The notes beneath the pieces were generated by a model. That model ran no database searches, was not told the DNA's origin, and saw only the letters and a list, made by a program, of their open reading frames with translations. A program made the translations under genes and the position numbers. From the sequence record PZ452607.1: DNA of 48,737 bases; one strand, given 5' to 3'. The stretch comes from a phage. This document shows, piece after piece, positions 16,099 through 44,180 of the stretch (position 1 is its first letter; every line of letters starts with the position of its first letter).

Positions 16099-19000
16099 AT
16101 GATTCAAAAAGTGATAAGCGGATCTAAAGGTGGGTCACAGAAGCCTCATAACCCAGTTGAGATGGAGGACAATCTAATCTCAATCAACAAAATCAAGATC
16201 CTGTTAGCTGTATCTGATGGTGAAATTGACGAAACATTCAGCCTGAAGCAGTTGATGTTTAACTCAGTCCCGGTGCAAAACGAGGATGGCTCATTTAACT
16301 TCGAGGGAGTAAAGGCAGAGTTCAGACCGGGGACGCAGACTCAGGAATATATCAAGGGAATGGAAGATAGCTCTAGTGAGGTAACTGTAAATCGTGAGGT
16401 TACTACCGATAACCCATACACAATCTCAGTAACCAACAAAACGCTGTCGGCAATCCGTATCAAAATGTTCATGCCTCGCGGCGTACGAATTGAAAGTAAC
16501 GGTGATAAAAATGGCGTAAGAGTTGAGTATGAGGTGCAACAAGCTGTTGATGGCGGCTCGTTTGAGACGGTGCTCACCGATGTAATCGAAGGCAAAACAA
16601 TGTCAGGTTACGATCGAAGCAGACGTGTAAACCTACCTAACTTCAACAATCAGGTGATATTCAGAGTGGTTCGGAAAACTCCAGACTCTAACGACTCGAA
16701 CGTTGTTGACGCGATTCAGGTAAAGAGCTATGCCGAGGTGATTGATGCCAAATTCCGTTATCCGCTGACTGGTCTTCTTTTTGTCGAGTTTGATTCGAAG
16801 ATGTTCCCAAACCAGTTACCTACGATCTCAATTCGTAAGCGCTGGAAGATTGTAAACGTTCCGTCAAACTATGATCCAGAATCACGAACTTATAACGGAA
16901 ATTGGGATGGAACTTTTAAGAAGGCATGGACGAATAATCCGGCCTGGGTGCTTTATGACCTGATGATTAATCAGCGTTATGGCTTGGATCAGAAAGAGCT
17001 TGGTATCGCTGTAGATAAATGGGCGCTCTACGAGGCTGCGCAATATTGCGATCAGATGGTTCCTGATGGGAAGGGCGGGACGGAACCTCGATACCTTTGC
17101 GACGTGATAATCCAGTCTCAGACTGACGCTTACAAGGTTATCCGAGATATTTGCTCAATCTTTCGTGGTATGAGCTTTTGGAATGGTGAGAGCATTTCGG
17201 TAATCATCGACAGGCCGCGTGAACCTGCGTACATCTTCACTAACGACAACGTTGTTAATGGTGACTTCTCCTACACGTTCGCAAGCGAAAAGAGCATGTA
17301 CACGACGTGTAATGTGATGTTTGATGATGAACAAAACATGTATCAGCAGGACGTTGAGCCAGTATTCGATCGTGAGGCTACTCTACGGTTTGGGAACAAC
17401 GTTACGAGCATTACAGCGATCGGTTGCACACGTCGAAGCGAGGCCAACCGACGCGGGAGATGGATTCTGAAAACTAACCTCCGCAGCACTACGGTAAACT
17501 TCGCTACCGGGCTTGAGGGCATGATCCCAACAATCGGAGATGTTGTGGCAATAGCTGATAACTTCTGGTCAAGTAACTTGACAATGAACCTGTCAGGGCG
17601 TTTGCTCGAAGTGTCTGGAAGTCAGATTTTCTTGCCGTTCCGGGTGGATGCACGCGCTGGTGACTTTATTATCGTAAATAAGCCAGATGGCAAGCCTGTG
17701 AAGCGCACAATCTCAAGTGTTAGTGCGGATGGTAAGACTATAGAGGTTAACATTGGCTTTGGCTTTCCTGTGAAGCCTAACACGGTATTCGCTATCGACC
17801 GCACCGACATTGCGTTACAGCAGTACGTCGTGACAAAAATCGATAAGGGCGATGATGATGAGGAATTTACCTACAAAATAACGGCGGTGGAGTACGATCC
17901 TAACAAGTATGATGAGATTGATTACGGAGTTAACATCGACGACCGACCGACGAGCATCGTTGAACCAGATCAGATCCCTAGACCGAAAAATGTGCAAGTA
18001 TCCTCAGAGTCGAGAATCGTCCAGGGGATGAGCGTAGAAACGATGATTGTTAGCTGGGATAAAGTTCCGTACGCTGTTTTCTATGACGTCCAGTGGCGAA
18101 AGGATAACGGTAACTGGCAAAATGTACCGCAGACAGCAAACAAAGAGGTATACGTTGAAGGTATTTACGCTGGCAACTATCAGGTTCGCGTTCGCTCAGT
18201 CGCTGGTTCGGGCACGACTTCAGGCTGGTCAAATATCGTCGCGGCAACGTTGACGGGTAAACAGGGTGAACCGGGCCGAACGATTAACCTCACAGCTACG
18301 GATGATGTTGTTTTTGGTATCCGTACAAAATGGGGGTTCTCTGATGGTTCTGGAGATACAGCCTATACAGAGTTGCAACAGTCACCGGATGGAACAGTGG
18401 ATAACGCAAGTTTGCTTTCTTTGATTCCGTATCCGCAGCATGAGTATTATCACTCACCAATGCCTGGAGGGAATATTGTTTGGTATCGGGTAAGGACGGT
18501 TGACAGGATCGGTAACGTGTCTCAGTGGACTGATTTTGTCAGAGGTATGGCATCAACAAACGTTGACGATATCATTGGGGAGATTTCTGTTGATATCGAA
18601 AACTCACCTGGTTACGAGTGGCTTGTTGATAACGCAACAGACAACGCGGCGCAGAACTCAGCTAACGCAGAGGCAGCAATAGAAAACGCGCTCGCCAATG
18701 ACAAAGACGCGATCTACATGAAGAAGGAGAACGGAAAACGAAAAGCTGAGTACACGAAATCACTGAAACTTATTGCTGATGAGACGCAGGCACGAGTGAC
18801 GGCGATCGAGCAATTGAAGGCAAGTTTTGGCGATCAGATTAGCGCTAGCAACAGCGAGCTGCGTGAGGTTATCGCAACCGAGACTGAAGCACTATCGCGT
18901 GAGATTGACCAGCTTAAGGCTCAGATTGGTGACGATATTCAGGCAAGTCTGACTGATATTCGGGAGGCTATCGCGAACGAGACTGAGGCTAGAACGCAAG

Positions 19001-19518
19001 CTGACTTAACACTTAGCGCGCGGCTTGGAAATAACGAGGCGGCACTTGCTCAAAAACTAGACTCGTGGAGTAACGCGGATTCTACTGGTGCAATGTACGG
19101 TGTCAAGTTGGGTCTGAAATACAACGGCCAGGAATACAGTGCAGGCATGGCTATGTCTCTAGTTGGTTCCGGAGCTGCGGTTAAGGCGCAGATTTTGTTT
19201 GAGGCGTCACGATTTGCCATCATGACTGGAATGAATGGTCAGACTCAGTACCCCTTCGTTGTTGAGAATGGTCAGGTTATTTTAAGTAGCGCGATTATCA
19301 AGAACGGATTCATCACCAACGCAATGATTGGAAACTTCATCCAGTCGAATAACTATGTATTTAACAAGTCCGGATGGAGGCTTGACAAGGGTGGAACATT
19401 CGAAAATTACGGAAGTGACGGTGAGGGTGCAATGAAGCAAACTAATACCACAATATCTGTTAGGGATGCGAGTGGTCGCCTGAGGGTTCAGATTGGCAGG
19501 TTGACTGGCTCATGGTAA
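16099..19518 (+). CDS. tail tip host-specificity protein (lambda J-like central fibre)
   Basis: 1139-aa ORF after K/I homologues with own promoter; coiled segment near C-terminus. Confidence 0.8.
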   Translation: MIQKVISGSKGGSQKPHNPVEMEDNLISINKIKILLAVSDGEIDETFSLKQLMFNSVPVQNEDGSFNFEGVKAEFRPGTQTQEYIKGMEDSSSEVTVNREVTTDNPYTISVTNKTLSAIRIKMFMPRGVRIESNGDKNGVRVEYEVQQAVDGGSFETVLTDVIEGKTMSGYDRSRRVNLPNFNNQVIFRVVRKTPDSNDSNVVDAIQVKSYAEVIDAKFRYPLTGLLFVEFDSKMFPNQLPTISIRKRWKIVNVPSNYDPESRTYNGNWDGTFKKAWTNNPAWVLYDLMINQRYGLDQKELGIAVDKWALYEAAQYCDQMVPDGKGGTEPRYLCDVIIQSQTDAYKVIRDICSIFRGMSFWNGESISVIIDRPREPAYIFTNDNVVNGDFSYTFASEKSMYTTCNVMFDDEQNMYQQDVEPVFDREATLRFGNNVTSITAIGCTRRSEANRRGRWILKTNLRSTTVNFATGLEGMIPTIGDVVAIADNFWSSNLTMNLSGRLLEVSGSQIFLPFRVDARAGDFIIVNKPDGKPVKRTISSVSADGKTIEVNIGFGFPVKPNTVFAIDRTDIALQQYVVTKIDKGDDDEEFTYKITAVEYDPNKYDEIDYGVNIDDRPTSIVEPDQIPRPKNVQVSSESRIVQGMSVETMIVSWDKVPYAVFYDVQWRKDNGNWQNVPQTANKEVYVEGIYAGNYQVRVRSVAGSGTTSGWSNIVAATLTGKQGEPGRTINLTATDDVVFGIRTKWGFSDGSGDTAYTELQQSPDGTVDNASLLSLIPYPQHEYYHSPMPGGNIVWYRVRTVDRIGNVSQWTDFVRGMASTNVDDIIGEISVDIENSPGYEWLVDNATDNAAQNSANAEAAIENALANDKDAIYMKKENGKRKAEYTKSLKLIADETQARVTAIEQLKASFGDQISASNSELREVIATETEALSREIDQLKAQIGDDIQASLTDIREAIANETEARTQADLTLSARLGNNEAALAQKLDSWSNADSTGAMYGVKLGLKYNGQEYSAGMAMSLVGSGAAVKAQILFEASRFAIMTGMNGQTQYPFVVENGQVILSSAIIKNGFITNAMIGNFIQSNNYVFNKSGWRLDKGGTFENYGSDGEGAMKQTNTTISVRDASGRLRVQIGRLTGSW

Positions 19519-20807: not shown

Positions 20808-20836
20808 TTGTATGTCCTCGTCGTTAGTGTGATTGC

Positions 20837-20865
20837 ATTGTATGTCGCATTTACTTTTATTGCAA
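20837..20865 (-). promoter_or_regulatory. sigma70-like promoter for lipoprotein gene (TTGCAA-17-TACAAT)
   Basis: Hexamers read on minus strand with 17-nt spacer, about 30 nt upstream of ATG. Confidence 0.45.
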
Positions 20866-20886
20866 TAGAGCGATTACAATTTTTTT

Positions 20887-21170
20887 CGTGTAACAGGCGT
20901 ATATTTTTGTAACCGGAATGGGTGTTACAAAATCGCCTCCATCCGACCGCAGGGAGATATGATAAAAACTCTATATAATATATATAGATAGATAATATTT
21001 AATTTTAGCTTTATATATATAATTATTGTTGTGTAACAGTTGTATATCGTGTAACAGGTGATTTGATTGATTCGTCAAATTTCTATCATGTATGTTCAAA
21101 ATTTAATCAATCTGGATTCTATTTGTAGGTATCTCTGTATTTCTAATAAAAAGCGGTTACAAGTGTTACG
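20887..21170. repeat. GTGTAACA(G) / GTGTTACA motif cluster in AT-rich control region
   Basis: Copies at 20887, 20921 (inverted), 21031, 21049, 21164; same motif as inverted pair at 40261 and 40286. Confidence 0.5.
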
Positions 21171-21275
21171 CAATAGACAGCGCATAAAAATCTACTTAAG
21201 CCATTGATTCTGTTGATGCTGGTTGTAACTTGAGCAATATAGACACGCAATTACACACTGATTACATGTATTCGA

Positions 21276-21303
21276 TTGACTAAACGCTGTTAATGGCTAT
21301 AAT
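21276..21303 (+). promoter_or_regulatory. sigma70-like promoter for recombination module (TTGACT-16-TATAAT)
   Basis: Near-consensus hexamers about 30 nt upstream of ATG 21335. Confidence 0.55.
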
Positions 21304-21334
21304 GGATTCATCGTAAACGAAGGAGATAAACGCA

Positions 21335-22399
21335 ATGTTCCAGGTATTCACATCAAGCCAGCTTTCTAACGACGAGTATCATAGAAACGAAGGTTGGGCG
21401 TCAGAGTATGTAAGCGGATCGAGTCTTGCAGAAATTTATCAGACCTGCCCTGCTAACTGGAGATTCAAGAAGAACGAGACAACGAAAACTCTGGAGTTCG
21501 GTACTCAGTCGCACACCAACTTTGAGAGTCGAGATCTGTTTACTGCAACGTATGCTAGATGCCCTGCTCCGTCAGAGTTTAAGGATCTGATTACTTCGCA
21601 GGCGGCGCTGGCAGCAAAATTAAAATCATTCGGCCTGAAAGGTACATCCGGTAAGCAGTACCCGGACCTCATCAAAATGATGGTTGATTGTGGTGAAGAA
21701 CTCAACGTTCAATACCTGATTGAACTGATCGCAGAAGCTGAGGCCCGTGCTGAAGGAAAACAACTTGTTGACGCGGACAAATACGACGCTTGCATGAAGA
21801 TGAGAGCCATCCTTGAGCAGAATCCCGATCATGAAGCGTGCATCAACAGTGAAACGGCGCAGCGTGAGATTTCAATCTTCGGTGAGATATCCGGCGTAAA
21901 AGTTAAGGTTCGACTTGACCATCTGGACTACAAAGAGAATGTTCCAGGTCGTGTCCTGACTGGTTATGATGAGAATGGCGATCCGGTATTTGAAGACGTA
22001 ATTTTCCCGGAAGCACTGATTATCACAGATTTCAAAACTACGATGAGCGCCAACCCGTTAGAGTTCCCGAGACTGGCATACAATCACGGCTATTACCTGA
22101 AGATGGCATTGCAGCATGACCTGCTACGACGCGCAATCCAGGCTGGAGCTTTTGAAGGTAACTTCCCGGAAGACATTCCGATCGTGGTTCGATTGCTTGC
22201 GCAGGAGAAAAAAGAGCCTTATATCGCACTGGCTTACCGTATGACTATGGAGCAAATCAGGATAGGTCGTAACCAGTACATTAGCGTAGTCCACACTTAC
22301 AAGGCTTGCTCTGAAATGGATGTTTGGCCTGGGTACGCTGGCGACGCAAGCGAGATCGAACTTGAAACGCCATCATGGGTGCGTTACCAAAATAAGTAA
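21335..22399 (+). CDS. putative recombination exonuclease (RecE/YqaJ-like)
   Basis: First gene of module followed by Erf-like and SSB genes; strong upstream promoter TTGACT-16-TATAAT; family assignment from context. Confidence 0.45.
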   Translation: MFQVFTSSQLSNDEYHRNEGWASEYVSGSSLAEIYQTCPANWRFKKNETTKTLEFGTQSHTNFESRDLFTATYARCPAPSEFKDLITSQAALAAKLKSFGLKGTSGKQYPDLIKMMVDCGEELNVQYLIELIAEAEARAEGKQLVDADKYDACMKMRAILEQNPDHEACINSETAQREISIFGEISGVKVKVRLDHLDYKENVPGRVLTGYDENGDPVFEDVIFPEALIITDFKTTMSANPLEFPRLAYNHGYYLKMALQHDLLRRAIQAGAFEGNFPEDIPIVVRLLAQEKKEPYIALAYRMTMEQIRIGRNQYISVVHTYKACSEMDVWPGYAGDASEIELETPSWVRYQNK

Positions 22400-27400: not shown

Positions 27401-27444
27401 ATAGCACTTTTTGCTAAAAACGTTTACTTTATGCCGTGTATTAT
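27401..27444 (+). promoter_or_regulatory. box + hairpin + -10 element upstream of helicase
   Basis: ATAGCACTTTTTGCTAAAAAC, 22-nt spacer, TATTAT; inverted repeat AACGTTTAC/GTAAACGTT around -10. Confidence 0.5.
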
Positions 27445-27487
27445 AGCGTAAACGTTACAACGATTCAAAGGATTAATAGCCGTGACA

Positions 27488-29913: not shown

Positions 29914-29953
29914 CACTTTTTGTTAAAACTGCCGGGATGGAATCTGGCATTAT
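29909..29953 (+). promoter_or_regulatory. box + -10 element upstream of methyltransferase
   Basis: AATAGCACTTTTTGTTAAAAC, 22 nt, CATTAT; TAG of box is the stop of VRR-NUC gene. Confidence 0.45.
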
Positions 29954-35061: not shown

Positions 35062-35469
35062 TCAAATTCTTCTTTCGTAAGCTGGAGCCTTGCGCACAAT
35101 TCGACGTTCCGATCTATCAATGTTTCTACGTTCGCCAAACAAGTCTTCATCACTCATTTCTCCAATGTGCATCATTTCCCACGTATATCGATTGTTGTAG
35201 CCATCAATACACATCAGCTTCATCATTACCGGGCGCTTGATCTTTCCCTTGCACCAGTAAAATCCACCCTTGCAATCAAGATAACCCTCAGTCACGCAGC
35301 GTGCGCAAAACTCCTTAGACAGCGCGCTTGTAAATTCACGGCGAGTCATTCCGGCGGCCTTAGCAAATCGCTCACTTTCCTTGTGGGCGTATATAAATTT
35401 CGCTATGTGCTGTCGAGTGTATTTGTCGTAACCTTCGCAGAACCTGAACAGATCTAAAAGAAGAAGCAT
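35062..35469 (-). CDS. hypothetical protein
   Basis: 135-aa Cys-rich ORF downstream of ATPase gene; 3' end overlaps another frame (34950..35153). Confidence 0.35.
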   Translation of the reverse strand: MLLLLDLFRFCEGYDKYTRQHIAKFIYAHKESERFAKAAGMTRREFTSALSKEFCARCVTEGYLDCKGGFYWCKGKIKRPVMMKLMCIDGYNNRYTWEMMHIGEMSDEDLFGERRNIDRSERRIVRKAPAYERRI

Positions 35470-35473
35470 ATTA

Positions 35474-37042
35474 TTAACCCATCAGTCGAGGATTGATGAA
35501 AACAATATCATCAATCCGGCAAGTGTAGTTCATCTCTTCGAGCGTGATCAGCAGGCTGTCGATTCGCTCAGCTACTTTTTGTTGACCGTTGAACGGCGTA
35601 ACGTTACGGCACTTTGCAACAATGCTATGAATAGGTGCGCGACCTTTGTTCTTCTTTGCGATCTCAGTGATAACATCAATCAGCTTACGAGATTCAGCCT
35701 CATCACCAGCATACCCGGCGGCGCTGGCAGACGACAGATAGGTTCTGGAAAGCTCATTGAAAATCATGATCGCTTCCTGCATTGTTTCAAGGTCAATCTC
35801 ACGGTTGGAACGGTTCGGTGATTCACCCTCCCAGTTCTTGATTGTGTGAAGAACTGAAGCAATGCGCAAAGCGTGCTTATCGAACTTGCCGAGATGACCG
35901 CGTAGCATTGAGTGAGAGTATTTGCCCCCGGCTGCGAAATCCGGCTCCATAGCCTGGCGAGCAAGGTTTAATTCACGCATAGCATTACGGCTTACAGAGA
36001 GAACAACGTTGTCCTCCTTCATAATGTTGTGCACAAGTCGATAATATTTACTCACCAATCCTCGATCGACTTCCTTATACAGTGCATCACCATTTTCATC
36101 GCAAAGAATACGAGTGCCTAAAAGAGGTTCCTCGCGAACCAATAGGAAACGCTCAGATACACCGATACCGCGCTGGCCTGCGTCCATGATACCCTTGATT
36201 GTTTCATCCTGCGCAATGACGCAGATCGAACCGACCGGGCAAAGAGATAAGTTATTGTCCTGATTTGAACGCGCAACCTCCATATGGTTTTTATCCCACG
36301 CCTTGAGGATAAGCTCGCTGTTTGATTTCTTATCAGAACCGCCATAAGTCAGGCCAAGCAATGTATTTATTGCCGTTGCCTCATCAGAGATTACGGAAAA
36401 GTGGCCTTGAACAGCAGCTACTTTCGCAAGACCTTCCGGTGTAGGATCTGATACCGCGAAAACAATATCAGCCATCTTCTTGATCTTCTCTTCCAGTTTT
36501 TCCTTGTCCTCGTACAGCGCCGCCGTCGTGTTACCCTTCGGATCGTTTTTGATTTCCTTCTCGATCTGACGTAGCTGACTGGTTAAACGGATACGTTCCT
36601 TTTTGCGCTCTTCATTCAGTCTCTGAATCTCTGCGCGCATAGGTGTAATCGCCGCTGAGTTAATCGCGGATTTACCTGTTGATGGTGGCTGGCTAATCAC
36701 CATATAAAGAGCGGTCGGTTGTTCTTCTCCGTGATATTGCACCCAAAACTTCCCTAGCATCGCGGCTGAGATGCACCCAATGAAATGAGCGTACGCAGAC
36801 GAAACAGGAAACTGTACAGACTCAGCTTTTGCTTTTGCATATTCGAATACCAGGTTATCGCCACCTAACGAAATCAGCGGGAACTTATCGTTTCCACTGT
36901 TGATATCGATCGGGTCTTGCCAAAACGAAACTGAATCCCCGTAGCTGTTTTCACGAATTGCGATCGCCACCGGATTAACTCCAGTGCTATTTGCGATCTC
37001 AATAATCTGTTGGTAATTCAGTTTTGGCTTAATATTAAACAT
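35474..37042 (-). CDS. P-loop ATPase, putative replication protein (DUF3987-like)
   Basis: Walker A-like PPSTGKS and Walker B-like VIAQDE; RBS AAGGAG before ATG (minus) at 37042; track ORF has 21-codon N-extension. Confidence 0.45.
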   Translation of the reverse strand: MFNIKPKLNYQQIIEIANSTGVNPVAIAIRENSYGDSVSFWQDPIDINSGNDKFPLISLGGDNLVFEYAKAKAESVQFPVSSAYAHFIGCISAAMLGKFWVQYHGEEQPTALYMVISQPPSTGKSAINSAAITPMRAEIQRLNEERKKERIRLTSQLRQIEKEIKNDPKGNTTAALYEDKEKLEEKIKKMADIVFAVSDPTPEGLAKVAAVQGHFSVISDEATAINTLLGLTYGGSDKKSNSELILKAWDKNHMEVARSNQDNNLSLCPVGSICVIAQDETIKGIMDAGQRGIGVSERFLLVREEPLLGTRILCDENGDALYKEVDRGLVSKYYRLVHNIMKEDNVVLSVSRNAMRELNLARQAMEPDFAAGGKYSHSMLRGHLGKFDKHALRIASVLHTIKNWEGESPNRSNREIDLETMQEAIMIFNELSRTYLSSASAAGYAGDEAESRKLIDVITEIAKKNKGRAPIHSIVAKCRNVTPFNGQQKVAERIDSLLITLEEMNYTCRIDDIVFINPRLMG

Positions 37043-39631: not shown

Positions 39632-39663
39632 AATACTTTCCTCGTTTACTGTTGATGTGATGA

Positions 39664-39709
39664 ATCATACCCAGTAGACATGGATAAGTCGTTAGCAAAA
39701 AATGCTATT
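39664..39709 (-). promoter_or_regulatory. box + -10 element upstream of leftward early block
   Basis: Minus strand AATAGCATTTTTTGCTAACG, 23 nt, TATGAT. Confidence 0.45.
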
Positions 39710-39787
39710 CCAATAATTGCTCATTATTCCATCAATACTGGAATATCTGGAATAATCACTATCATGATTGATCTCTAATGATGAGAT

Positions 39788-39827
39788 GTGATTGTTGCAT
39801 GGTGTGCAACTGTTGATGTGATTGTTT
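39788..39827. repeat. direct repeats GATGTGATTGTT (third related copy near 39652)
   Basis: gatgtgattgttgca...ctgttgatgtgattgtttc; ctgttgatgtgatgaatca at 39650..39668. Confidence 0.5.
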
Positions 39828-39893
39828 CTTAGAATGCAATGATTGTGAGAGGGGGGATCTAGTGTTACCAGGTTCGCCTGGTAGTCATCTCCA

Positions 39894-39915
39894 TTTTTAG
39901 CAAAAAGTGCTATCG
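39894..39915 (-). promoter_or_regulatory. box copy, second (distal) copy upstream of leftward early block
   Basis: Minus strand GATAGCACTTTTTGCTAAAAAT followed by hairpin ACCAGG cgaa CCTGGT. Confidence 0.4.
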
Positions 39916-40190
39916 ATTACGATTACGCTTGATTGCGTGTTAATCATTGTATATGATTTGCCTAAATCGCAATCGTATACAAAATTACGCCAAATTACGC
40001 CTTATAATATACATATAGATATATGTATATATATAATATATAAGTGTTTTTTTTATTTATATATATAGATACTATTATTTGTAATATGGTTGTATAGCGT
40101 GTCTTTTATGTTAATCGTTGGATGCTCTGATTATGATGCTCATGTTTATATATACAGTAGTTTTATCGGCGCATATTTATTTAGGGAAAT

Positions 40191-40217
40191 CGATTAACAC
40201 GATTAACACGATTAACC
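40191..40217. repeat. tandem 9-bp repeat CGATTAACA x3
   Basis: cgattaaca cgattaaca cgattaacc; related copies CGATTACGATTACG at 39914..39927 and AAATTACGCC x2 at 39982..40001. Confidence 0.6.
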
Positions 40218-40260
40218 ACACTTAAAATCGCCCCGCAGACCTTGACACATGCGGGTCGTC

Positions 40261-40293
40261 GTGTAACACTACGATTAGAGACACGGTGTTACA
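40261..40293. repeat. inverted pair GTGTAACAC ... GTGTTACA upstream of first rightward early gene
   Basis: Half-sites about 17 bp apart, just downstream of a TTGACA hexamer at 40242. Confidence 0.5.
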
Positions 40294-40331
40294 TGTTAAT
40301 CATGGTGTATATTGAAACTAAGGAGAAAGCT

Positions 40332-40907
40332 ATGAGTTCTTACCAGTCAGACGCAGTACAGGCAGCAATCAAGGCAGCTTACGAGAAGGCCGGAGTAACG
40401 GTTGAGCAGCGACCGGAGGCAAAAGTGACCGATGTTATCCGGGCCGCCTGCGATCAGCTTTATGGTGATGGCGAGAATACCGAGTTCACATTCGACGCGA
40501 ATAAGATGGCTGAGGCCGCAGCAAGAAAGTCGATGCCAGACGCTGACGAACATGATGTTGCCAAAGGCGCCGAGTCCTGGTTGCTCGGGAAGACGGATGA
40601 GATTAACGAGAAGTTTAAATCCTCATTCATCACCCCGATCGTTTCTCGACACTTCTCCAAGATCGGCAAGTCGGTCAAGGTGAGCGTGACCATGAACGAT
40701 GAGAAGTTGCGAGTCGTTACTATCTCAGTGAGTGACGAAGAAGTTCCGGTGAAGAAGCGCCGCAGCCGGAAAAAAGTCAGCCTGGCTGATTGTCTGGATT
40801 CGTTTGTTCCTGATGTTGATGATCTTGAGAAAGGCGACGTTACTGTAAGCACCGTGCGCGACCTGGTTCGCCAGATGAAAGCGCATATCGAAAAATGTGG
40901 ACTGTAA
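40332..40907 (+). CDS. hypothetical early protein (first gene of rightward early block)
   Basis: RBS AAGGAGAAAG before ATG 40332; preceded by iteron-rich control region; basic C-terminal patch KKRRSRKK. Confidence 0.45.
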   Translation: MSSYQSDAVQAAIKAAYEKAGVTVEQRPEAKVTDVIRAACDQLYGDGENTEFTFDANKMAEAAARKSMPDADEHDVAKGAESWLLGKTDEINEKFKSSFITPIVSRHFSKIGKSVKVSVTMNDEKLRVVTISVSDEEVPVKKRRSRKKVSLADCLDSFVPDVDDLEKGDVTVSTVRDLVRQMKAHIEKCGL

Positions 40908-43934: not shown

Positions 43935-44153
43935 ATGGCTACTATCATGACAGTAGAAGATGCAGCACGCGATGCAGTGGAAGGAATGCGCCCAAATACC
44001 TCCAGAATAGCACACTACTACAAATCTGAGGTGTCGGTAGTGCAATTGGTCCACGAAATTTTAAGGCTCCCACAAGTCGATTCAGCGCGCGTTGTGACGT
44101 GCTTAAAAAATTATTTTTGCATCACTATTAAAACGAATAGCACGAATTGCTAA
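43935..44153 (+). CDS. hypothetical protein
   Basis: 72-aa ORF; 3' end reads through box copy; overlaps a possible 36-aa hydrophobic ORF at 43840..43950. Confidence 0.3.
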   Translation: MATIMTVEDAARDAVEGMRPNTSRIAHYYKSEVSVVQLVHEILRLPQVDSARVVTCLKNYFCITIKTNSTNC

Positions 44154-44180
44154 AACCTATCAAGGGGAATACGCTATGAT
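44136..44180 (+). promoter_or_regulatory. box + hairpin + -10 element
   Basis: AATAGCACGAATTGCTAAAAC, 22 nt, TATGAT; stem GGGGAAT/ATTCCCC. Confidence 0.55.

Follow-up and report, generated by a model that had tools for sequence, protein, structure and literature searches.

Phased TGTAAC hexamers around a duplicated AT-rich core in bacteriophage T1: a candidate replication origin between cor and recE

What role does the long AT-rich gap between the divergently transcribed genes cor and recE of bacteriophage T1 play? A sequence-only reading of record PZ452607.1 (48,737 nucleotides, analyzed whole and referred to here as the window) had noted a short repeated motif in this gap, shared with the gap ahead of the rightward early genes, and had proposed that a second regulator, distinct from a box-binding factor, acts on both. 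The window is 99.8% identical to the reference T1 record (AY216660/NC_005833) over a 2.5-kb test piece; near the gap, window coordinates equal record coordinates minus 9043 (window = record − 9043), and position 1 of the record lies at window 39794. The two gaps are as follows.

20808-21334, 527 bp: the cor-recE gap, bounded by orf30 (cor, minus strand) and orf29 (recE, plus strand).
39632-40331, 700 bp: the early gap, or "early control region", from orf1 (leftward) to orf77 (rightward).

The gene cor encodes an outer-membrane lipoprotein of superinfection exclusion, and recE is the first gene of the recE-erf-ssb operon. Analysis of the intervening DNA suggests that the cor-recE gap could be a replication origin made of iterons and an unwinding element, of the type known from Staphylococcus aureus pathogenicity islands (SaPIs), a tentative answer that we rate somewhat short of an even chance.

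The motif is real, but it had been mis-sized. As the 9-mer GTGTAACAG it occurs exactly at 20888, 21031 and 21049, and these copies, all inside the cor-recE gap, are the only three in the 48.7-kb genome; the expected number is 0.18, and three copies were reached by none of 100 shuffles. The latter two positions agree with the sequence-only reading, whereas the first had been placed one base too early, at 20887. For the 8-mer GTGTAACA there is one more copy, the fourth, at 40261, and four or more copies were found in 3 of 100 shuffles. The partial and inverted copies that had been reported are present (GTGTTACA at 20922-20929 and, on the minus strand, GCGTAACA at 21164-21171), as is the inverted partner near 40286, where GTGTTACA at 40286-40293 contains the inverted 7-mer TGTTACA (40287). 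A density in coding DNA similar to that in the gap, which would have told against the motif, was not found: coding DNA holds 0 exact copies of the 8-mer. Copies with one mismatch number 32 genome-wide against 32.8 expected, which is the level of chance and confines the enrichment to the gap. The trailing AG varies in close relatives, and the repeated unit is TGTAAC rather than GTGTAACA(G). This hexamer has 24 genomic copies: seven in the cor-recE gap, two upstream of orf77, one in the gap between pir and the helicase gene, and 14 that stand singly in coding DNA. A first-order Markov null based on the gap's own sequence predicts 0.43 copies there, where seven are found; the family-wise probability that any hexamer with at least two G/C would reach seven there is P = 0.0004, and the density is 13.3/kb in the gap versus 0.32/kb outside both gaps.

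With TGTAAC as the unit, the gap contains the following elements from left to right.

20837-20865, minus strand: Pcor, a predicted sigma-70 promoter of putative function, TTGCAA-17-TACAAT, from a consensus scan.
20889-20913, plus strand: array A1, with TGTAAC at 20889, cGTATA at 20898 and TGTAAC at 20908, 9-10 bp period; GTGTAAC is invariant and the bases after it are variable.
20924-20929, minus strand: an inverted TGTAAC (GTTACA) that closes the left-hand set; GTTACAAAAT is invariant.
20958-21090, no strand: the near-invariant AT-rich core, least stable at 20966-21026, where GC is 0.10.
21032-21055, plus strand: array A2 at the right edge of the core, with TGTAAC at 21032, TGTATA at 21041 and TGTAAC at 21050, 9 bp period.
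21156-21179, minus strand: array A3, with TGTCTA at 21179, CGTAAC at 21170 and TGTAAC at 21161, 9 bp period; the middle unit is TGTAAT in most relatives.
21224-21229, plus strand: A4, a lone TGTAAC; GGTTGTAACTTGAG is invariant.
21240-21266, minus strand: array A5, with TGTAAT at 21266, TGTAAT at 21255 and TGTCTA at 21245, 10-11 bp period, directly upstream of PrecE and ending 10 bp before its −35.
21276-21303, plus strand: PrecE, a predicted sigma-70 promoter, TTGACT-16-TATAAT (11/12 matches), annotated as a promoter in AY216660.

The AT-rich character with TATATA runs, as described earlier, is thus concentrated in a core that has repeats on both sides. Within 527 bp there are seven TGTAAC, one CGTAAC, three TGTAAT and two TGTCTA, a tally that fits the 6-12 short repeats of a SaPI-type origin. 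Their orientations are +, +, − to the left of the core and +, +, then −, −, −, +, −, −, − to the right; the repeats flank the central AT-rich region on both sides and in both orientations, as in origins of that type, and six other lineages are laid out in this way too. At Pcor and PrecE the −35 and −10 hexamers are free of any overlapping exact hexamer, the nearest variant being a TGTAAT at 20873-20878 just upstream of the Pcor −35, and most hexamers of the gap lie at least ~45 bp upstream of the predicted start sites. A consensus scan of the AT core for a canonical promoter found none. The recE leader contains a GTAAAC at 21313.

Conservation was measured over 14 distinct Tunavirus gaps, one per genome, that are 90-95% identical. 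TGTAAC positions are invariant in 41 of 42 cases, their immediate flanks in 20 of 30 and the remaining gap in 209 of 304 (Fisher P = 5e-4 for the hexamers outside the core); the bases that complete the 9-mer vary among AGG, GGG, AAG and TGG. The core is invariant in 122 of 133 columns, above the rest of the gap, and Pcor and PrecE together in 24 of 24 hexamer positions. Judged by these alignments, the TGTAAC motif is under purifying selection, and it occurs in both divergent gaps. Spacing is phased as well: when counts were pooled over 10 gaps from eight genomes (~7 lineages), same-strand TGT-TGT pairs at a lag of 9 numbered 38 against 6.6 expected (z = 11.8), a lag of 10 was also raised (z = 5.8), and so was the first harmonic at 18-19 bp. 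The middle units of A1 and A2 (20898-20904 and 21041-21047) are TGTCTAT in 13 of 13 relatives and cGTATAT and TGTATAT, respectively, in T1, possibly a paired change of two sites.

Chance or base composition might be invoked for such a pattern, as might a hidden gene, either a small RNA or the 46-codon open reading frame (ORF) CPTT1_049 (21067-21207), which was added in the updated AY216660 annotation. The region is indeed AT-rich and CPTT1_049 is open in all 14 Tunavirus genomes, but the family-wise P of the hexamer count (4e-4), the retention of the motif in lineages whose gaps cannot be aligned and the fact that CPTT1_049 covers only A3 of the five arrays leave these explanations next to no credence. 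The variable columns of CPTT1_049 number 8, 13 and 12 by codon position, with no third-position bias, and by this measure it is probably not a gene. A search of the gap against Rfam returned nothing better than E = 0.41, which is chance level.

The comparison can be carried beyond Tunavirus, to which BLAST matches of the gap (≥90% identity) are confined, by anchoring the gaps of distant relatives on RecE. All relatives anchored in this way have a gap of 450-550 bp with 33-38% GC, and most gaps examined closely share one layout. Counted from the recE ATG, a left set of sites spans about −460 to −400, the TATA-rich core lies at about −370 to −310 and the right set at about −310 to −270; one more site is found near −180, and others stand immediately upstream of a promoter resembling TTGACT...TATAAT. 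The layout is retained in SRT8, IME347, ESCO41, Henu7, TLS and metagenomic relatives, whose gaps BLAST cannot align; ESCO41 deviates most. The hexamer that occupies it varies by lineage: IME347 (Badaguanvirus) and ESCO41 (Nouzillyvirus) have TGTAAC, SRT8 has TGTAAT(C), Henu7 and the metagenomic relatives have TGTTTC and TGTTCT, and TLS has TGTTC(C/A/T). Because phages of one host species carry different hexamers in the same layout, the sequences favor a binder that the phage itself encodes, and whose specificity drifts, over a host factor.

Host proteins nevertheless deserve consideration, whether CRP, a response regulator of the OmpR/ArcA type on the direct repeats, or IHF, Fis or H-NS on the AT core. 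The GTTACA direct repeats resemble an OmpR box and the TGTTAA repeats an ArcA box. AT-rich curved DNA attracts nucleoid proteins, and cyclic AMP (cAMP)-CRP inhibits PrecE in a cell-free system (PMC6737242). That TGTAAC, TGTAAT, TGTTTC/TGTTCT and TGTTC stand at equal positions in phages of the same host species makes host sites very improbable all the same. No CRP site (TGTGA-N6-TCACA) was visible on reading the gap, for which no dedicated pattern search was run, and no TGTAA/TTACA half-site pairs with CRP spacing were seen on reading the hexamer coordinates, again with no dedicated search. The 9-bp period, moreover, does not suit the 10-11 bp spacing of OmpR and ArcA sites.

The resemblance between the two gaps, on which the sequence-only reading had relied, goes deeper than it saw: they share a colinear, paralogous module. 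The relevant elements of the early gap are these.

40013-40102, no strand: the paralogous AT-rich module of the orf1/orf77 early gap, colinear with 20973-21052.
40192-40220, minus strand: three tandem 9-bp units CGATTAACA, reading TGTTAATCG on the minus strand, with hexamer TGTTAA and the same 9-bp phasing.
40262-40293: an inverted TGTAAC pair, 40262-40267 (plus strand) and 40288-40293 (minus strand), 39-70 bp upstream of the orf77 start codon.

Local alignment of one T1 gap to the other scores 66 against a Markov null of 26 +/- 3.3 (maximum 41), and the aligned part includes the non-repetitive tail TATT-TGTAAY-GTTGTATAnCGTGT. The two gaps of SRT8 align with a score of 96 against 25 +/- 3 over ~310 bp, and those of Henu7 with 64 against 24 +/- 2.5 over ~85 bp. 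Both copies of the module have the same orientation and lie ~300-340 bp from the downstream rightward operon. Nearest-neighbor calculations rank the two AT cores below every other 60-mer or 100-mer of the whole genome in duplex stability: the least stable 60-mer is 40007-40067 (z = 5.8), the second lies in the cor-recE core (z = 5.5), and the next region has z = 3.7.

The repeats of the early gap are more varied. Besides the TGTAAC pair there are four CGTAAT and one TGTAAT, and six of the 17 genomic copies of GTTAATC are located here. The first TGTAAC of the pair overlaps a weak putative orf77 −10 (TTGACA-17-TAACAC), and its inverted partner is ~20 bp downstream. The pair is partly conserved: L106 retains the first copy and has GTTACG for the second, and phages with another orf77 allele have a single GTTACA left. 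The first rightward early gene, orf77 (40332-40904), encodes an acidic protein with weak Pfam matches to DUF7174 and AcrF2. Several Tunavirus genomes have an allele of it that is ~52-55% identical and was swapped along with the promoter-proximal repeats, such that TGTGAC and CTAGACA replace TGTTAATCG and TGTAAC; from these comparisons, orf77 with its upstream 300 bp is a mosaic swap of a gene together with its upstream DNA. Elsewhere in the early gap, the stretch 39780-39890, between two leftward boxes described below, contains repeated GATTGT(T) units and a hairpin, CCAGG-TTCG-CCTGG (39868-39881), that is kept in relatives. Position 1 of the reference record, possibly a pac end, falls in the same stretch.

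T1 packages its DNA by the headful from a pac site, and the module might be that site, or a recombination site, read by the small terminase subunit or by RecE/Erf, in the manner of the P1 pac hexamers that flank a cleavage region. The hexamer sets do flank a central region, and the start of the reference record in the early gap (39794) is only ~240 bp from the AT core there. With two copies of the module per genome and one pac described for T1, and with hexamers that lack GATC (none was seen on reading the gap) where those of P1 pac are Dam-methylatable, we think it very improbable that packaging or recombination explains the module.

Of the explanations considered, we favor an origin. Counted for it are the repeats on both sides of the weakest duplex of the genome, the two-copy module, the drifting repeats in a family-wide layout, the strong promoters that need no upstream activator, the presence of a suitable helicase, and the lack of any origin for the family in the searched literature. 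T1 DNA synthesis needs host elongation functions and is not known to need host initiation functions, which would call for a phage system of origin recognition. In the mechanism that we infer, a sequence-specific protein encoded by T1 would coat the phased hexamers and melt or bend the AT core, allowing the phage helicase and primase to load and the module to fire replication. Pcor and PrecE, as strong divergent promoters, would supply the core with additional negative supercoiling. Two neighboring genes encode the candidate binders.

35474-37042, minus strand: Orf9, candidate initiator, a DUF3987 MCM-like AAA+ helicase with a predicted C-terminal winged helix and a putative link to the repeats.
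35062-35469: Orf10, 135 residues, translated directly after Orf9, annotated as a helix-turn-helix protein and conserved family-wide.

The first candidate is the winged-helix C-terminus of Orf9, which might read the hexamers as in SaPI Rep, and the second is its small neighbor Orf10. Orf9 matches Pfam PF13148 (E = 2.5e-42) and a PHROG labeled "DNA helicase". Its AlphaFold model, built with 33 homologues, has a predicted local distance difference test score (pLDDT) of 88.5 and a predicted template modeling score (pTM) of 0.87, and in this model residues 447-516 have the helix-strand-helix-helix-strand-strand topology of a winged helix. The best Foldseek matches in the PDB are MCM2-7 and archaeal MCM subunits (probability 1.00), with template modeling scores of 0.33-0.36 because Orf9 is multidomain, and small winged-helix domains match the C-terminus; searches of the PDB with the Orf9 and Orf10 sequences gave no matches. 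The C-terminus diverges faster than the ATPase body (65% versus 82% identity between T1 and SRT8, 65% versus 81% between TLS and Henu7), as would be expected of a specificity domain, though it is no proof of one. Of the other replication proteins of T1, Orf24 is a primase and Orf22, also labeled "DNA helicase", is a superfamily 2 helicase; with the MCM-like Orf9, T1 therefore has two helicases. A DUF3987 protein of a mobile element is a 5'-3' helicase of the replicative type that works with a primase (PMC11724360).

In its fullest form the proposal would be that the two modules (~20.86-21.27 kb and 39.9-40.3 kb) serve as replication origins in T1 and in Drexlerviridae at large. The initiator would be Orf9, a self-loading MCM-like DUF3987 helicase whose winged-helix C-terminus would read hexamer iterons phased at 9 bp. 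We regard this version as doubtful. If true, it would place a SaPI-Rep-like initiator-helicase with dual origins and fast-diverging iteron specificity in a classical virulent coliphage.

Several observations weigh against an origin. No clean covariation emerged between the hexamer class and the C-terminus of Orf9, Orf10, Orf7 or Pir (7-8 lineages for Orf9, Orf10 and Orf7); ESCO41 shares TGTAAC with T1, yet its Orf9 C-terminus is 49% identical. A SaPI origin adjoins rep, but 14 kb separate the gap from orf9. An unwinding element can do without an invariant sequence, so a core that hardly varies suggests some further, sequence-specific function. The sites are in a promoter region of which a 217-bp part responds to Pir and cAMP-CRP, and the TGTAAC over the putative orf77 −10 is operator-like.

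Candidate binders were also sought more widely. A presence/absence screen of 47 T1 proteins in IME347, ESCO41, SRT8, TLS and Henu7, in which the right early operon was mostly outside coverage, found none exclusive to the phages with TGTAAC, and among the proteins of the covered regions neither presence/absence nor similarity revealed a regulator that tracks the motif. A search for Orf9-centered loci in IMG/VR, made with a single protein and a two-sequence alignment, returned only close relatives and five loci at 57% identity.

The same evidence bears on the idea with which the locus was first described, namely that the arrays are operators of a phage transcription regulator, distinct from the factor of the ATAGCAC boxes described below, that controls Pcor and PrecE together with the early promoters. 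Such a regulator might, for instance, wrap or loop the DNA in the manner of P2 Cox or 186 Apl on phased direct repeats. What stood of the original proposal is that a distinct class of motif occurs in both divergent gaps; operator geometry at Pcor and PrecE, and a cognate regulator, did not emerge. Sites lie in two divergent promoter regions, A1 and A5 being directly upstream of the promoters Pcor and PrecE, and the modules have the same orientation at ~300-340 bp from the rightward operons. The 9-10 bp phasing would suit a protein filament on one face of the DNA, the promoter-proximal part of the gap has proven regulation, and the near-invariance of the core exceeds what a mere unwinding element needs. 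A site over promoter elements, as expected of an operator, is absent at Pcor and PrecE and present at the weak orf77 promoter, where the inverted partner follows ~20 bp downstream, and in the T1 pir promoter (Ppir), which has one TGTAAC in its spacer. But the Ppir copy is not conserved, being TGTATC or TGTAGC where Pir is 96.7-98% identical; the near-consensus Pcor and PrecE need no activator and carry no exact hexamer on −35 or −10; an invariant, extremely unstable core with repeats on both sides is left unexplained; and no candidate regulator in the covered regions follows the motif. Operators of this kind are possible, if on the doubtful side. If they exist, they would link the early region with the recombination operon, and their regulator would complement the Pir/Orf65/CRP circuit described in 2019. 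The module looks more like iterons around an unwinding element than like a classical, simple operator; an origin and a separate regulator are not mutually exclusive.

A known regulator must also be considered. With green fluorescent protein (GFP) reporters, Laganenka et al. 2019 (PMC6737242) found that Pir (Orf23) activates the hol and dam promoters and represses its own promoter and PrecE, that Orf65 represses pir, and that cAMP-CRP inhibits the pir, dam and recE promoters. Their PrecE reporter fragment, which was active in E. coli (PMC6737242), maps by the published primers to window 21135-21351; it includes A3-A5, A3 thus falling within it, and excludes all three GTGTAACAG. The hol promoter (Phol) fragment could not be mapped, its forward primer being absent from the window; an ATAGCA-like element lies upstream of hol. 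The repression of a fragment that contains A3-A5, and of Ppir with TGTAAC in its T1 spacer, would fit hexamers that are operators of Pir, a Cro-like regulator. However, the helix-turn-helix region of Pir is identical in SRT8, with TGTAAT in the gap, and IME347, with TGTAAC; phages with a 96.7-98% identical Pir have TGTATC or TGTAGC in place of the Ppir TGTAAC; and the dam promoter (Pdam) fragment that Pir activates has no such hexamers. A more economical Pir site would be the ATAGCAC box, which is present in Pdam and Ppir and in degenerate form in PrecE (AATAGACAGCGCATAAAAA, 21172-21190, the only box-like copy in the cor-recE gap). Because of the identical helix-turn-helix, the lost Ppir hexamer, the hexamer-free Pdam and the boxes in the mapped Pir fragments, Pir is unlikely to be the reader of TGTAAC, and we consider Pir operators improbable. 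Pir may read the ATAGCAC boxes, and we infer that TGTAAC belongs to another factor, as the sequence-only reading proposed. When Pir was examined as a TGTAAC binder by comparing its helix-turn-helix region and the 130 bp upstream of pir across ~40 phages, no covariation was found, and this candidate was rejected.

The boxes themselves are as follows.

27402-27420, 29920-29938 and 44137-44155, plus strand: ATAGCAC-N3-TTGnTAAAA boxes.
39694-39713 and 39894-39913, minus strand: ATAGCAC-N3-TTGnTAAAA boxes.

These boxes are the 21-nt repeat described for TLS and noted for T1 (PMC11447400). The TTG of a box precedes a −10-like hexamer by 22-25 bp, a distance too great for a −35, and the placement is accordingly that of an activator site. 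One box is found in the pir leader in every lineage examined, and TGTAAC sites have no consensus in common with ATAGCAC-N3-TTGnTAAAA. The −10 of the pir promoter (TTGAAT-17-TATAAT, minus strand) is bracketed by a perfect 9-bp inverted repeat, AACGTTTAC at 27419-27427 and GTAAACGTT at 27448-27456, which is a candidate operator for autorepression or for Orf65.

The sequence of T1 has long been known, and in the searched literature we found no account of its hexamer arrays, of the duplicated module or of a family origin. For TLS and AAS23, the searchable papers name neither an origin nor an origin-binding protein: the 2024 TLS paper detected no iteron-like repeats in the TLS genome, and the AAS23 paper reported no origin-binding protein. 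Nothing usable on the transcriptome of T1, on mapped start sites or on an origin came from the literature searches. Although T1 belongs to the seven classical T phages, the literature searched assigns neither it nor its family an origin or origin-binding protein; the analysis yields two precise candidate loci, defines the repeat unit and narrows the candidate binders to a few, and the fixed layout with lineage-specific hexamers constitutes a natural specificity-swap system. The window also differs from reference T1 in the ORF of its J-like tail fiber (16099-19518), which has 1139 codons against 3519 nt in AY216660; this in-frame difference of 99 bp makes the window shorter.

Both iterons that surround an AT-rich core and phased operator arrays are well-known kinds of element. 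P2 Cox and 186 Apl are small phage proteins that bind short direct-repeat arrays, about one helical turn apart, at several loci; unlike the T1 module, they serve lysogeny and excision control in temperate phages, their boxes overlap promoters and attP, and there is no AT core flanked on both sides. Satellite phage P4 (ori and crr) and Bacillus phage SPP1 (oriL and oriR) each have two separate cis regions with the same short repeats beside AT-rich DNA. The C-terminal domain of P4 alpha reads TGTTCACC iterons, which the TLS repeats (TGTTCAC, TGTTCCA) resemble, and SPP1 G38P reads its boxes; P4 alpha is a fused primase-helicase of another family and G38P a separate origin-binding protein, and no homologue of either was found here. 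The ATAGCAC-N3-TTGnTAAAA boxes, 21 nt long (PMC11447400), are a second class of repeat; like the TGTAAC arrays, this class is family-wide in Drexlerviridae and intergenic, but it occurs in single copies ~76 nt upstream of start codons, oriented with transcription.

The closest comparison is with the origins of SaPIs and other phage-inducible chromosomal islands (PICIs), which have 6-12 penta- or hexanucleotide iterons, about half on each side of an AT-rich center, in both orientations (PMC9371898). SaPI Rep is a self-loading AAA+ helicase whose C-terminal winged helix reads the iterons, with specificities that vary between elements (PMC9371898). T1 differs in that its helicase gene is 14 kb from the cor-recE gap and 2.6 kb from the early gap, whereas a SaPI origin is immediately downstream of rep; in having two copies of the module; and in its triplets, phased at 9-10 bp, which mix two or three types of hexamer. 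It is alike in its hexamers, at least seven in number, in the central AT core, in the lineage-specific hexamers, and in an MCM-like helicase with a predicted winged-helix C-terminus.

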